Shown here one piece after another: positions 8,135 to 31,307 of a DNA stretch of 38,095 nt. Every line of letters starts with the position of its first letter. The stretch's first letter is position 1. The translations under genes and the position numbers were made by a program. The DNA is from Acidobacteriota bacterium (GTDB taxonomy: Bacteria; Acidobacteriota; Vicinamibacteria; Vicinamibacterales; 2-12-FULL-66-21), in contig JBKPRU010000234.1 in NCBI GenBank assembly GCA_046734675.1, positions 1 through 38,095 of the forward strand, read 5' to 3'. The notes below the pieces were generated by a model. The model ran no database searches, was not told where the DNA came from, and worked only from the letters and a program-made list of their open reading frames with translations.

Positions 8135-8224
8135 GGAGAGATGGCCGAGTGGTCGATGGCGGTGGTCTTGAAAACCACTGTACCCGGAAGGGTACCGGGG
8201 GTTCGAATCCCTCTCTCTCCGCCA
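8135..8224 (+). tRNA. tRNA-Ser (anticodon TGA), encoded CCA
   Basis: GGAGAGA/TCTCTCC acceptor stem, GTGGT-CT-TGA-AA-ACCAC anticodon arm, long variable arm GTACCC-GGAA-GGGTAC, GGTTCGAATCC T-loop and GCCA end. Confidence 0.97.
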
Positions 8225-8334: not shown

Positions 8335-8406
8335 ATGTTCCGCGGTCTGGTGATTCGCCTCGTCCTTACCAGCGTCGGCATTAACCTGCCGACGCGCACG
8401 GGGTGA
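8335..8406 (+). CDS. Branched-chain amino acid attenuator leader peptide MFRGLVIRLVLTSVGINLPTRTG (23 aa)
   Basis: 9 of 23 residues are Leu/Val/Ile (core LVIRLVL), plus 3 Thr. It uses AT-ending codons (ATT twice, CTT). Its stop codon lies in the antiterminator arm. Confidence 0.8.
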   Translation: MFRGLVIRLVLTSVGINLPTRTG

Positions 8407-8477
8407 TGTAGCCAGACGCAACACGATCAGGTTTTCAAGGGCCATCACCCTCACCGGTGATGGCCCTTTTGTTTTTT
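8345..8477 (+). promoter_or_regulatory. Ribosome-dependent transcription attenuator
   Basis: Mutually exclusive pairings: GTCTGG(8345-50)/CCAGAC(8412-17); antiterminator GGGTGATG(8401-08)/CATCACCC(8443-50); and the terminator at 8437-8477. There is also an internal hairpin GCGTCGGCA/TGCCGACGC (8372-8395). Confidence 0.8.
8437..8477 (+). terminator. Intrinsic terminator of the attenuator
   Basis: 13-bp stem AAGGGCCATCACC / loop CTCACC / GGTGATGGCCCTT, followed by TTGTTTTTT. Confidence 0.9.
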
Positions 8478-8492
8478 CAGGGAGGGACGACC

Positions 8493-8666
8493 ATGAACGT
8501 CAGCCGATTCGATGCGGACGCGGCCGCGGTACCCGCAGACGGTACGACACGGCCCCAATCAGACGGGGACGTCCGTCACGCGATGCGCGCGGCTCCGGAG
8601 TATGGAGACGACGACCAGCAGGCCGAAGAACCGGCGGAGGAGCCCGGCTACGGCCACGGCGTCTAG
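8493..8666 (+). CDS. 57-aa acidic, probably disordered small protein ending in GYGHGV (same C-terminus as LeuA)
   Basis: Strong SD GGAGG at 8481-8485 and GC3-rich codons. Sequence MNVSRFDADAAAVPADGTTRPQSDGDVRHAMRAAPEYGDDDQQAEEPAEEPGYGHGV. Confidence 0.75.
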   Translation: MNVSRFDADAAAVPADGTTRPQSDGDVRHAMRAAPEYGDDDQQAEEPAEEPGYGHGV

Positions 8667-25767: not shown

Positions 25768-26823
25768 TTACCGTTCGATCCGCGACACGATCGCGCGTGC
25801 GAGCGCGCTGCAGGACGCGGGGCCACCCAGGTCCCGCGTCAACTCTCCGCCGGCGGTCACCTCCGCGACCGCCGATTCAATCAGCGACGCCTCCTGTTCC
25901 AGCTTCAACGCATGCCGCAGCAGCATCGCGGCTGAAAGCACCGCGCCGATCGGATTGGCGATATCGCGTCCTGCGATGTCGGGAGCGGAACCATGCACTG
26001 GCTCGAACAAGCCTGGTCCGTCGCCGAGACTCGCCGAGGGCAGCAGCCCCAGCGATCCAACGACCGCGCCCGCTTCGTCCGACAGGATGTCGCCGAACAT
26101 GTTTTCGGTCACGATGACATCGAACGACGCGGGGGCAAGCGTGATGCGCATCGCGCACGAATCGACGAGCATGTGTTCGAGCTTGACGTCCGGAAACTCC
26201 GACGCGACTTCACCAACCACGGTGCGCCACAGGCGTGACGTCTCGAGCACGTTCATCTTGTCGACGGAGGTTACGCGTTTGTGACGCCCGCGCGCAGCGG
26301 TAAACGCGACGCGCGTGATGCGTGCGATCTCTTCGCGCGAGTAGCGCATCGTGTTCCACGCGGACGCGCCGTCCGGCGCGATGCCCCGCGGTTCGCCGTA
26401 GTACAAGCCGCCGGTCAGCTCACGGACGACCAGCATGTCGGTGCGCCCGAGCACTTCCGGTTTCAGCGGACCGGCGCCTTCGAGGCCCGGCCACACCCGC
26501 GCCGGACGCAGGTTCGCATAGAGCCCTAGCTGCTGCCGCAGTTGCAGCAGCGCGGATTCAGGCCGTTGTCCGGGAGGACGGTTGTCGAACTCCGGGGCGC
26601 CGACGGCGCCAAGCAGGATTGCGTCCGCGGCCTTGCACGCGGCCAGCGTCTGGGGAGGAAGCGGCGGCAGGTCCTGGCGGATCGCCGCGCCGCCAATCGC
26701 GAACGTCTCGAAATCGAAATGGTGATCGAAGCGGTGGGCGGCCGCAGCGAGCGCGGCCTGCGCTGCCGCGGTGACTTCAGGCCCGATGCCGTCACCTGGC
26801 AGCAGAACGATACGACTGTGCAC
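25768..26823 (-). CDS. leuB: 3-isopropylmalate dehydrogenase
   Basis: LPGDGIGPEV, LYANLRP, VRELTGGLYYG, NMFGDILSDEA, EPVHGSAPDIAG. Confidence 0.96.
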   Translation of the reverse strand: MHSRIVLLPGDGIGPEVTAAAQAALAAAAHRFDHHFDFETFAIGGAAIRQDLPPLPPQTLAACKAADAILLGAVGAPEFDNRPPGQRPESALLQLRQQLGLYANLRPARVWPGLEGAGPLKPEVLGRTDMLVVRELTGGLYYGEPRGIAPDGASAWNTMRYSREEIARITRVAFTAARGRHKRVTSVDKMNVLETSRLWRTVVGEVASEFPDVKLEHMLVDSCAMRITLAPASFDVIVTENMFGDILSDEAGAVVGSLGLLPSASLGDGPGLFEPVHGSAPDIAGRDIANPIGAVLSAAMLLRHALKLEQEASLIESAVAEVTAGGELTRDLGGPASCSALARAIVSRIER

Positions 26824-26838
26824 CGGTGATCAGTCTAC

Positions 26839-28098
26839 TTACACGCCGTGCCCGTAGCCAAATTCCGCCGGCGTCGTCCCGAGTTCCTGAATCGCCGCTC
26901 CTGCGTTCTGCGACGGCGCCGGCGCGGTGGCGGGCGGCGCGGTCCCGAGCGTCTGCGACACGATGTAGGCGAGGTCGCGATCGCTCACGACTTTCTCGCG
27001 GTCCGCGTGCTCGATCACGGCGCGATACACGCGATCGAGATCCCGGCGTTCGAGCGTCAACCCGATCTGCTCGCAGCGGCTCTGCACGGCGTGACGTCCG
27101 GAATGCTTGCCGAGCACGAGCGTCGCCTGCGGCACGCCGACTTCCTCCGGTCGCATGATCTCGTAGGTGCGGCGATCCTTCAGCATGCCGTCCTGGTGAA
27201 TGCCTGCTTCGTGCGCGAACGCATTGCGGCCGACGATGGCCTTGTTCGCCTGCACGCCTTCGCCGGTGAGCGCGGTGAGCAGCTGGCTCGAGGCGTAAAT
27301 CTCGCGCGGGTTGATGTTGGTCGTGAACGGCAGGCGATCCGCGCGCACGCGCGTCGCCATCACGAGCTCTTCGAGCGAGGCGTTCCCCGCACGCTCGCCG
27401 ATGCCATTGATCGTGCACTCCACCTGGCGCACGCCGGCGCAGACCGCCGAGAGCGAGTTCGCCACCGCGAGGCCGAGGTCATCGTGGCAGTGCGTGCTGA
27501 ACGTCACCTGGTCGGAGCTCGGGACGCGATTGATCATTCCGTGGAAGAAGTCTTTGATTTCATCCGGCGTCGAGTAGCCGACGGTATCGGGAAGGTTGAT
27601 CGTCTTCGCGCCCGACTGAATCACCGCCTCGATCACGCGCCAGAGGAAATCCGGATCGCTGCGCGTCGCATCCTCTGCCGAGAACTGCACGTCGTCTGTG
27701 TACTGACGGGCCAGGCGAACCGCGTCCATGGCCGTACGGAGACACTCTTCACGGGTCATCCGCAGCTTGCGCTCGAGATGCAGGTCGGAGGTGGCGAGGA
27801 ACACGTGAATGCGACGGCGCGGCGCGGGCGTCAGCGCCCAGGCGGCACGCTCGATGTCCTTGGCGTGGCAGCGCGCGAGCGCGGCAATCACCGGTCCGCG
27901 GATGTGCGTCGCCACCATGCGGACGGCCTCGGCGTCCGCGTCGGACGCGATCGGGAAGCCGGCCTCGATGATATCCACCCCCAGGGCCGTCAGCTGATGG
28001 GCGAGCTTCAACTTCTCGTCGATGCGCAACGAAAAGCCCGGCGCCTGCTCGCCGTCGCGCAAAGTCGTGTCGAATATCGTCAACCGGTCAGCGGACAT
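26839..28098 (-). CDS. leuA: 2-isopropylmalate synthase, short form without the C-terminal regulatory domain, ending in a low-complexity tail and GYGHGV
   Basis: [56 protein letters not shown]. 419 aa; SD GGAGG. Confidence 0.93.
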
Positions 28099-28178: not shown

Positions 28179-29051
28179 ATGCAGCTCCCGGATCTTGCTG
28201 CTTTTCTGGCCGTCGCCTCCGAACGGAGCTTTTCAGCCGCCGCCCGGCGGCTGCACCGCACCCAGCCCGCGATCAGCCAGGCGGTCCGCCGCATCGAGGA
28301 AGAGCTCGGCGAACGCCTCTTCGACCGATCGTCTCGAGATGGAACACTGACGGAAGCCGGGCGCTTGCTGCAGGACTACGCGCAGCGGCTGCTCGGGCTC
28401 GCCGCAGAAGCCCAGGTCGCCGTCCGCGAGCTCCAGGAAGTCCGCAAAGGGCGCGTCATCATCGGCGCCAACGAAGCGGCGGTCCACACCCTGCTGCCGC
28501 ACATCGAGAAGTTCTCGAGCTCACACCCCGGGGTCGCCATCGATGTGCGGCGCATCTCGTCGCGCCAGATGTCCGCGGCGGTGCTCGATCGCTCCATCGA
28601 CTTCGGCGTCATGACCTTTCAGCCGTCCGACCGCGGCATCCAGGCGCTGTCGCTCGGCACGGACGAAATCGTCCTCCTCACCGCGCCGATGCATGGGCTC
28701 GCAAGCCGCAAGCGCGCAACGCTCGAAGAAGTCGGACGGGAGGCCGTCATCGCGCATAACGATCCGTCGCCGACGCGCGACCGGGTCCTGCGCGCCTATG
28801 AACGAAAGCGGACCGCCATCAACATCCAGATTTCGCTGCCCAGCCTCGACGGCATCAAGCGCGCGGTGGAGATGGGGATCGGCGTCGCGCTGCTGCCGCG
28901 GCGTTGCGCGCTGACCGAGATTGCGCGCGGCAGCCTGGTTGCGGTGAAGGTGCCGGAGCTCGGCGCCACGCGCCAGGTGCGGCTCGTCTACCGAAAGACC
29001 GGCGAGCGCAGCCGCGCTGCGGAGGCCTTTCTCGAAGTGATCAGAGGATAG
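28179..29051 (+). CDS. LysR family transcriptional regulator, divergent from leuA
   Basis: FLAVASERSFSAAARRLHRTQPAISQAVRRIEEELGERLFDR...LTEAG, plus a substrate-binding domain. Confidence 0.95.
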   Translation: MQLPDLAAFLAVASERSFSAAARRLHRTQPAISQAVRRIEEELGERLFDRSSRDGTLTEAGRLLQDYAQRLLGLAAEAQVAVRELQEVRKGRVIIGANEAAVHTLLPHIEKFSSSHPGVAIDVRRISSRQMSAAVLDRSIDFGVMTFQPSDRGIQALSLGTDEIVLLTAPMHGLASRKRATLEEVGREAVIAHNDPSPTRDRVLRAYERKRTAINIQISLPSLDGIKRAVEMGIGVALLPRRCALTEIARGSLVAVKVPELGATRQVRLVYRKTGERSRAAEAFLEVIRG

Positions 29052-29060
29052 TCGACGCGA

Positions 29061-29672
29061 TCACCACGTGTTGGTGACGTAGGGCAGCCGCTTCGCGACG
29101 CCGCGCACCTCGTCGAAATTCTCGAGCAGGAGACCGGTCGCGTCCCAGCTGCCATCGAGAAAAGACTCGCGCGTTGCCGACGGAAGCGCAATCTCGTACT
29201 CCTTCCCCGCCGCCTTGACGCGCATCGACCGGAAATCGATCGTCACCTCAGTCGAGGGGTTCGCTTCCACCGCATCCATCAACGCATCGAGCGTGGCGCG
29301 CGACGCGGTCGGGCACGGCATGCCGAGGGCGACGGAGTTGCCGAAGAAGATCTCCGAGAAGGACTGCCCGAGGACGGCGCGGATGCCGCGCCGGCGAATG
29401 GCCTGGGGCGCGTGCTCGCGCGACGATCCGCACCCGAAATTCGAGTGCACGAGCATGATTGACGCGCCCGCGTACTTCGGGTTCGAGACCGGATGCGGCA
29501 TGCCGCCGCGCGCGTCCGCTTCATGCCGGTCGTCCTCGAAGAGATGATCCTCGAGTCCTTCGAAGGAAACCGACTTCAGGAAGCGGGCCGGGATGATGCG
29601 ATCGGTGTCGATGTCGTCGCCGCGCATCGGCAGCGCGGTGCCGCGGATGTCGGTGAGGCGCTCAACGGCCAA
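29061..29672 (-). CDS. leuD: 3-isopropylmalate dehydratase small subunit
   Basis: [37 protein letters not shown]. Confidence 0.95.
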
Positions 29673-31059
29673 TGGTGGCCTCCGCTGCCGCGAACTCCCG
29701 CACGTCCACGACCTCTCCCGCTACGGCCGCGGCCGCGACCATTGCGGGACTCATGAGCAGCGTGCGCCCGGTCGGACTTCCCTGGCGTCCCTTGAAGTTG
29801 CGGTTCGACGATGACGCGCAGACCTCGCGTCCTTCGAGACGATCCGGATTCATCGCGAGGCACATCGAACAGCCGGCGCCGCGCCACTCGAACCCGGCTT
29901 CGGTGAACACGCGATCGAGGCCCTCGCGCTCGGCCGCAGCCCGCACGCTCTGCGATCCGGGGACGACGAGCGCCTTTACGTGCGGCGCGACGTGGTGGCC
30001 GCGCAGGATCCGCGCGGCCTCGCGCAAATCCGACAGGCGTCCGTTCGTGCACGAGCCCACGAACGCGACGTCGATCTTCGTGCCTTTCAACGGCTGCCCG
30101 GGACGGAAGCCCATGAACTCGAGGGCCTCCTGATCGCCGGTCGACGGGATCCGCTCGTCCACCGCGAGGGACTGCCCGGGATTGATCCCCCACGTCACCG
30201 TCGGCTGAATCGCCGCCGCATCCAGCGTCATTTCGTCGTCGTACGACGCGTTCGCGTCCGACGCCATCGACGACCACCACCGGCACGCGCGCTCGAAGTC
30301 GTCGCCGACGGGTGCGAACGGGCGTCCGCGCAGATAGGTGAACGTCGTCTCGTCGGGATTGACGTAGCCGACTCGCGCGCCGCCTTCGATGGACATGTTG
30401 CAGATCGTCATCCGCTCGTCCATCGACATGCGTTGGATGGTGTCGCCGGCGTATTCGTAGGCGTAGCCGACGCCTCCCTTCACGCCGAGGCGGCGAATGA
30501 TCTCGAGGATGACGTCCTTCGCGTAGACGCCGGGCTGCAGCCGTCCCTTCACGGTGATGCGCCGCACCTTCAGCGGATCCATCGCCAGGCACTGCGACGC
30601 GAGCACGTCGCGCACCTGTGAGGTGCCGATGCCGAACGCAATCGCGCCGAACGCCCCGTGCGTCGACGTGTGGCTGTCGCCGCACGCGATCGTCATGGCC
30701 GGCTGCGTCAACCCGAGCTCGGGGCCAATCACGTGCACGATGCCCTGCTGCCCGCTCGAGAGATCGAGCAGCCGGATCCGATGCTCGTGCGTGTTGCGCT
30801 CGAGCGACGAGAGCATTTCCTCGGCCATGAGGTCGATGAAGGGCCGCCGCTGATCGCGCGTCGGCACGATGTGGTCGACCGTCGCGATGGTGCGCTCGGG
30901 GAAGGCCACCGCCGCGCCGCGCGCGCGCAACATGTCGAACGCCTGCGGGCTGGTCACTTCATGAATGAGATGGAGGCCGATGAAGAGCTGCGTCTGCCCG
31001 TTCGGCAGGCGGCGGACGGTATGCGCGTCCCAGACCTTGCGGAGAAGCGTCGTGCCCAT
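29662..31059 (-). CDS. leuC: 3-isopropylmalate dehydratase large subunit
   Basis: [51 protein letters not shown]. Start at [13 protein letters not shown]. Confidence 0.96.
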
Positions 31060-31087
31060 GGTGAAGCGCCGATCGTAGCACGAGGGG

Positions 31088-31154
31088 GCGAGAGGCGATG
31101 GGCGAGGTGCGGGGCGCGGGGAGCGACGGCGCGAGGGCGACGGCGACGGCGACC
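31088..31154 (+). repeat. Degenerate tandem repeat: six GCGNNNN heptamers then four GCGANN hexamers
   Basis: gcgagag gcgatgg gcgaggt gcggggc gcgggga gcgacgg c gcgagg gcgacg gcgacg gcgacc. Confidence 0.7.
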
Positions 31155-31307
31155 GGTCGGACGGCTTCGACGTCCCCGCTAACTCGCCGCCGCACACGTC
31201 CCGACCTCGGCCGGCAATTTGCCTTCATTGCGCCTCGCATCCGTGCACCGCGGTTTTTCCCAGAAAAAAACGGCTGGTGGCAAGAACCTCGTACTCAGGA
31301 GGATTTC

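Follow-up and report, generated by a model that had tools for sequence, protein, structure and literature searches.

A C-terminal GYGHGV tag shared by a short 2-isopropylmalate synthase and small free peptides in Acidobacteriota, with a possible role in the control of branched-chain amino acid synthesis

The leu locus and its short LeuA

The window discussed here is a stretch of 38,095 nucleotides (contig JBKPRU010000234.1) from an acidobacterial genome that we call G000 (83% complete; other genomes, loci and families are also given by our own G, L and f handles), and it carries a leucine locus in which leuA (26839-28098, minus strand) is followed after 15 bp by leuB (25768-26823, minus, with a GTG start at 26823) and is divergent from the gene of a LysR-type regulator, LysR1 (28179-29051, plus), whose position is conserved. 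Next to LysR1 lie leuD (29061-29672, minus; matched by Pfam and NCBIfam) and leuC (29662-31197, minus, given as its longest open reading frame), and since the family match of the latter begins only at residue 47, its true start is probably near 31059. The divergent LysR gene is a steady companion of short acidobacterial leuA genes, whether or not these carry the tag described below, and it also flanks some long leuA forms; routine control of leuA is likely transcriptional and exerted through this regulator. Canonical leuB was found in none of the 34 searched genomes of families f5, f2 and f7, most of which have leuA, and another decarboxylating dehydrogenase may have taken over its role there; in family f5 a rhomboid gene comes after leuA. 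We also considered valine auxotrophy as the context, as G000 has no ilvC or ilvN matches, yet KARI is present in 96 of 121 genomes of the order and incompleteness of the assembly is the likelier cause.

The leuA product is a short form of 419 residues with a TIM barrel and accessory subdomains and without the regulatory (R) domain, and the segment at 26839-26970 (minus) encodes its last 43 residues together with the stop codon. Pfam places HMGL-like PF00682 at residues 6-273 (E 2e-91) and HCS_D2 PF22617 at 288-369, with no match anywhere in the 419 residues to LeuA_dimer PF08502, the C-terminal leucine-binding domain, and the NCBIfam model of 2-isopropylmalate synthase, NF002086, scores 601 against a cut-off of 532 and stops matching at residue 385. 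Together with the translation, these matches bear out the initial annotation, which had described a LeuA without its regulatory domain and with a Pro/Ala tail that ends in GYGHGV. The closest solved structure is 3rmj (E 4e-120), and R14, D15, L74, H98, S140, E142, N168, T172, H203, H205, H296 and Y312 are all present and invariant across 97 aligned relatives; their roles (catalytic, metal, ketoisovalerate pocket) are assigned by analogy with the enzyme of M. tuberculosis. The PF22617 match and model helices 335-344, 351-368 and 373-384 represent accessory subdomains I and II; the last of these helices closes the fold in the AlphaFold model, and residues 396-419, with pLDDT below 50, are disordered as modelled.

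A search of all six frames of G000 that read through stop codons found no PF08502, and thus no frameshifted R domain (only 15 bp lie between the leuA stop and leuB) and no second full-length leuA, both of which were looked for. Nor was the domain found in 36 further family genomes, of which many are nearly complete, and with none in 37 genomes the short form is, on gene content, the main LeuA of the family and one without a leucine sensor; that it is the primary leucine enzyme, as had been proposed from its place at the leuB/C/D locus, can therefore stand. PF08502 is present in 4 of 61 relatives. A Leptospira-type LeuA2 identity was rejected (NF042434 at 216 bits against a cut-off of 500, and no full-length LeuA domain in the 37 family genomes). 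Two other DRE-TIM genes, named by inspection, are found in G000, one for an HMG-CoA-lyase-like protein and one for a distant protein of 410 residues (L003:1432-2664, contig C73) that has no R domain, is about 30% identical to LeuA and has similar matches in five relatives.

A conserved end behind a variable linker

The LeuA tail comprises 39 Pro/Ala-rich residues with GYGHGV at the end, and it is divided between a variable Pro/Ala/Thr-rich linker (residues 381-413; 26860-26958, minus), whose closing TPAE (26863-26874) shows conservation inside the family but not beyond it, and the invariant C-terminal tag with its stop codon (26839-26859, minus). The 26 best-scoring family orthologues, chosen by homology and not by motif and including the window's own LeuA, all have GYGHGV as their last six residues, with TPAE ahead of it in 25 and with D and F at 14 and 13 positions from the end in 22 and 20, respectively, while linker columns agree in at most 12 of the 26 and tail length ranges from 35 to 43 residues; the expectation of a conserved terminal motif behind a variable linker was thus correct. 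One more family LeuA is frameshifted, and the motif was found in its other frame.

Furthermore, GYGHGV occurs exactly twice in the six frames of the 4.58 Mb G000 sequence, each time directly before a stop codon, where 0.0007 such occurrences would be expected by chance. When the codon pattern of the tag with TRR behind it was searched for, 40 of 61 relatives gave a match, against 2 for the reversed control, and so did 150 of 351 genomes at the level of the order, against 17 genomes for the control by our own count. Among 230 carriers, which were selected by the motif, every synonymous codon and all three stop codons are in use, so the constraint acts on the peptide; the freely varying codons rule out a signal at the RNA or DNA level, and the tag is, judged from these sequences, under selection at the protein level. 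Variants that we have seen include GYGFGV, GYDHGV and GYGQFV.

Free peptides and other carriers of the tag

The link that had been drawn from the LeuA tail to an open reading frame at 8493-8666 is real, the identical tag ending both proteins. This second gene (8493-8666, plus strand) encodes a free peptide of 57 residues, acidic and of low complexity, that ends in GYGHGV; ahead of it are a leader peptide of 23 codons rich in Leu, Val, Ile and Thr (8335-8406, plus) and a terminator-like hairpin with a U tract (8439-8478, plus), a predicted attenuator, and the next gene is convergent. A tRNA-Ser (TGA) gene at 8135-8224 lies just upstream of this cassette. The stretch 8335-8478 fits a classical leader-peptide attenuator, in which a short reading frame rich in control codons precedes a terminator hairpin with its U tract, and the leaders of tag-peptide cassettes are generally rich in Leu, Ile and Val; from this layout we infer that the leader-terminator units function as attenuators. 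The same unit stands ahead of ilvD-ilvB-ilvN-ilvC in L304 and ahead of ilvE in L149, and it is also present before a second LysR1-type gene in G045 (L287:3265). The single RNA run looked at, with 6% of the words, amounts to no evidence on transcription.

We collected 39 cassettes, 9 of which have too little flank, leaving 30 that were scored (one of them an IlvE cassette): a co-directional gene follows within 300 nt in 16 and farther away in 3, and a convergent gene follows in 11. The co-directional neighbours within 300 nt include hom, a second LysR gene, 2-hydroxyacid dehydrogenases and unrelated genes, and the exact tag recurs across the cassettes on linkers that vary. In family f2 the free peptides (L219-L224, L211, L226, L150) have in common a short Val-rich stretch before the tag, which may form a beta strand.

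GYGHGV is carried by LeuA, IlvE, an aspartokinase and dozens of free peptides of 50-70 residues. The 80 loci that we fetched by choice from multi-hit genomes and other families, a non-random sample, hold 81 tag matches, comprising 54 LeuA ends (3 frameshifted), 26 short low-complexity reading frames and the aspartokinase, and in two further genomes the tag ends an IlvE that heads an ilvE-hom-thrB-thrC operon. Similarly, 120 metagenome matches include 63 LeuA, 2 IlvE and about 27 free peptides (counted by eye; a hairpin was detected in 16), with the remainder being fragments or chance. Genome G201 (98% complete) has a free tag peptide, and no LeuA, LysR1 or IlvN was found in it; their absence may reflect recent loss. 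The exact tag is also unevenly distributed, being found in 0 of 46 genomes of f11, 0 of 9 of f13, 0 of 14 of f8 and 1 of 18 of f7, families whose short LeuAs are tagless. Altogether 34 short LeuAs without the tag were collected, one of which is a frameshift artefact, about 10 changes of state are needed to place tag presence on the tree, and no column of the LeuA or LysR1 alignments follows tag presence cleanly.

A sister tag and the regulatory domain

A related end, Y[LF]WGV, is found in other lineages. Short LeuAs of Terriglobia end in DYLWGV (11 sequences), and four Gemmatimonadota LeuAs have an intact PF08502 that is followed by Y[LF]WGV (three) or AMWGV (one). Across the phylum, 20 of 401 scanned genomes have a Y[LF]WGV match, on 4 LeuA, 2 LeuC, 7 reading frames of about 45 residues located 2 nt before leuB, 3 cupin-like proteins and 1 different peptide, with 3 matches due to chance. 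The seven small reading frames belong to one acidobacterial genus, and at both of their loci that were mapped the separate tag gene lies between leuB and a LeuA of 520 residues whose R domain is intact. Cupin or cupin-like proteins ending in YLWGV were noted at L540, L541 and L542, two of them within ilv/leu operons between ilvE and ilvC, and the full-length Terriglobia LeuAs L078 and L096 have a different common end, L[YF]PGGY, behind an Ala-rich spacer. Because the Y-x-[HWF]-G-V pattern, the carrier and the position agree, GYGHGV and Y[LF]WGV would appear to be one element.

This has consequences for the proposal that the tail is a short linear motif which substitutes for allosteric control. 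The motif itself has held up, but the substitution has not, given that Y[LF]WGV stands on or behind LeuAs with an intact R domain, that the short LeuAs collected above include 34 without the tag and that the tag also ends proteins unrelated to LeuA; replacement of the R domain is therefore unsupported. In a first quick tree the tagged full-length Gemmatimonadota LeuAs were sister to the Vicinamibacterales forms (SH-aLRT 98), a grouping that a second tree of 39 rows did not recover, and as the two disagree we make no claim that the tag predates loss of the R domain.

Other enzymes of the pathway have similar ends. In Vicinamibacterales, an acidic spacer of IlvN leads to a conserved x-S-V end, mostly [YHF]SV, at 13 of 14 loci, and the IlvN of family f48 has AMSV there (loci L293-L306, L563-L565 and L571); this x-S-V end may represent the tag in a second form. 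LeuB ends in [YL]HAV at 11 loci where LeuA is tagless (L050, L063, L079, L092, L097, L098, L103, L153, L361, L518, L519), and in the one AlphaFold LeuB model this end prolongs the last helix with a pLDDT of about 87, so it may be structural and unrelated to the tag. Acidobacterial IlvB (L293-L306) has a conserved end of its own, IRRP..I.ET[GA]AD, an end that ilvB genes from other phyla among our loci do not show.

What might read the tag

The explanation that we tentatively prefer, with somewhat less than even confidence, is that the tag is a C-terminal handle for a negative regulator, be it a protease, an adaptor or an inhibitor, and that the free peptides are decoys induced by starvation. 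The AlphaFold model and the alignment support a terminal recognition motif, in that a disordered spacer of 35-43 residues leads to a fixed end, and the combination of this fixed end and disordered spacer with the use of any carrier and with retention where no gene follows points to action in trans. The tag would be read through its free terminal Val, and its reader would be a negative regulator that limits the enzyme, most likely a protease or its adaptor. In the classical attenuation scheme the leader-controlled product rises when the tRNAs of the control amino acids are uncharged, so that peptides behind Leu/Ile/Val-rich leaders should rise in starvation and should favour synthesis. A shortage of Leu, Ile or Val would thus leave tRNAs uncharged and open the predicted attenuator, the free tag peptide would increase, and this peptide would titrate the negative regulator off the tagged enzymes and so favour synthesis. 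We favour a decoy for a negative regulator because the sign is then right for both forms of the tag and no pathway-specific partner is needed. Against it, the tmRNA (SsrA) tags of five relatives end in LALAA, LPLAA or MAYAA, unlike GYGHGV, and identity with them was rejected; whole families are without the exact tag; and G201 keeps its peptide, which leaves the decoy without a known client there. Also, a purely trans-acting element is not the only reading that suits the 16 cassettes with a near co-directional gene and the many enzyme tags that directly precede another pathway gene, as these fit a model in cis too.

The strongest of the alternatives, which we nevertheless consider unlikely, is that the tag is a peptide ligand of LysR1, with its terminal Val mimicking ketoisovalerate or isopropylmalate inside the effector pocket, and that the free peptide switches on leuAB in starvation. 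Where the flank is long enough, almost all short acidobacterial leuA genes have LysR1 as their divergent neighbour, all 5 Acidobacteriota with Y[LF]WGV that were tested have an orthologue (E 5e-93 to 3e-121), and two cassettes end 5-6 nt ahead of the second LysR gene. However, five genomes of Gemmatimonadota, of unknown completeness and including four whose LeuA is tagged, gave no LysR1 orthologue (the best match had E 1e-21), and none was found in G201 or G174, both of which keep the free peptide; in addition, LysR1 is retained in tagless lineages without residue changes linked to the tag, and a tag on LeuA itself would create a positive feedback loop. The second regulator, LysR2, was rejected as a receptor, since its distribution (0 of 15 in tag-bearing f3, 14 of 14 in tag-poor f7) is the reverse of that of the tag.

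Next in order, and doubtful, is action on the catalytic dimer of LeuA, in cis or in trans, with the tag behaving in the manner of CP12/GapB either as an activator that steadies the accessory domain or as a pseudo-substrate; of the readings considered, this one comes closest to the original proposal. LeuA is indeed the commonest carrier (more than half of the metagenome matches), several genomes with an untagged LeuA (G051, G185, G183, G292, G340, G358) keep the tag on a free peptide or on IlvE, and position 54 is Asp in 23 of 34 tagless forms and Ala in 85% of tagged ones, although this last association is weak and confounded by kinship. Yet the attached tail is disordered in the AlphaFold monomer, some LeuAs with an intact R domain also bear the sister tag, a peptide that inhibits LeuA would have the wrong sign if made in leucine starvation, and G201 keeps the peptide with no LeuA found. 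Complex predictions that paired two copies of LeuA residues 1-387 with the final 30 residues scored 0.12 and 0.01 against a mark of 0.32 and weigh neither for nor against this reading.

Slightly harder still to sustain is the idea of a nascent arrest peptide of the TnaC kind, which would stall at its own stop codon in an amino-acid-dependent manner and in this way govern how the carrier is released and the next gene expressed. It would explain why the tag is always at a stop codon and why carriers are interchangeable, the ribosome being present in every lineage, and it agrees with a family-level motif that covers 15 residues and with tags that are often 0-30 nt before leuB, leuD or hom; but a convergent gene is next in 11 of the 30 scored cassettes, the tagged leuA of f5 precedes the rhomboid gene, the spacing to the next gene varies between -4 and 190 nt, and the stop codon may be any of the three. 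Finally, it is improbable that the tag serves as a scaffold by which pathway enzymes dock on one another (LeuA on LeuB, for instance) or that it is a functionless relic. Some LeuB positions, such as P119 (100% vs 22%) and M225 (100% vs 33%), do track the tag on the adjacent LeuA, and gene deletions could have left the free peptides behind; but searches of 21 genomes of f5 and 8 of f2, many of which keep the exact tag, gave no canonical LeuB, the apparent covariation traces to the f11 and f13 lineages, and an exact tag on fully diverged linkers requires selection.

LeuB was accordingly rejected as the receptor, as was IlvC (KARI), which was not found in the tag carriers G086, G100 and G059. Since each pathway-specific candidate parts from the tag in at least one lineage, these gene distributions favour a housekeeping reader, as a handle for a negative regulator would allow. 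The G000 proteome has 7 ends of the form [HYWF][GAS]V where 4.7 are expected, and with no enrichment the tag is not a widely used degron; PDZ domains give 22 matches in the same genome.

Relation to known systems

The enzyme is a further member of the short LeuA kind, and its tag system is a variant of regulation by tail mimicry. The short form LeuA2 of Leptospira is reported not to be inhibited by leucine (PMC12345160). LeuA2 (matched as PDB 4ov4/4ov9) likewise has catalytic and accessory domains without the C-terminal leucine-binding domain, but it is a second paralogue beside a full LeuA1, whereas here the short form is the sole LeuA found in the family, is closer to canonical LeuA (NF002086 above its cut-off) and has a conserved terminal tag. 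Homocitrate synthase, in which feedback is reported to operate by competition at the active site (PMC9860122), has a similar two-domain layout without an R domain. In contrast to that enzyme, the gene context here is leuBCD and the family score is that of LeuA.

CP12 and the C-terminal extension of GapB provide the example of a terminal peptide that is both fused to an enzyme and found as a small, free, disordered protein. The tag of Acidobacteriota is likewise both fused and free, but it has no cysteine pair or redox switch, it is under apparent attenuator control and it has several unrelated carriers. CysE, CymR and CdiA have C-terminal docking tails that bind CysK, and these resemble the tag in having a short end that contains Gly and Tyr, with a terminal branched aliphatic residue, common to unrelated proteins; the pathway differs, the terminal residue is Val here and Ile there, and there is no sign of a PLP-enzyme receptor. 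Closest to the handle-and-decoy explanation are C-terminal degrons with their decoys or anti-adaptors, and anti-TRAP, a small protein induced by uncharged tRNA that opposes a negative regulator. Here too there is a disordered spacer with a terminal signal, and the architecture alone fits a C-terminal degron, but the opposing protein would be a bare copy of the signal, and no tmRNA tag is matched.

We found no description of GYGHGV or Y[LF]WGV tails in the literature searched, the scope of which did not extend to subscription journals and supplements, and the tag system, which is real and conserved, appears to be undescribed. The control of LeuAs that lack the leucine-binding domain is poorly known, and here such an enzyme is the sole LeuA found in a Vicinamibacterales family. 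Attenuators normally govern enzymes or transporters, so a product that is only a peptide signal would, if the reading is true, be a new link from tRNA sensing to protein control, and the tag, should it prove to be a degron, would add a new C-terminal degradation signal to those of bacteria; the tag is also short and can be synthesized. For the Acidobacteriota, and through the sister tag the Gemmatimonadota, this would mean a post-translational control of branched-chain amino acid synthesis, which we put forward tentatively, in which a single tag would mark enzymes of the pathway for one common regulator and an attenuator may turn tRNA starvation into a free tag that releases the enzymes.
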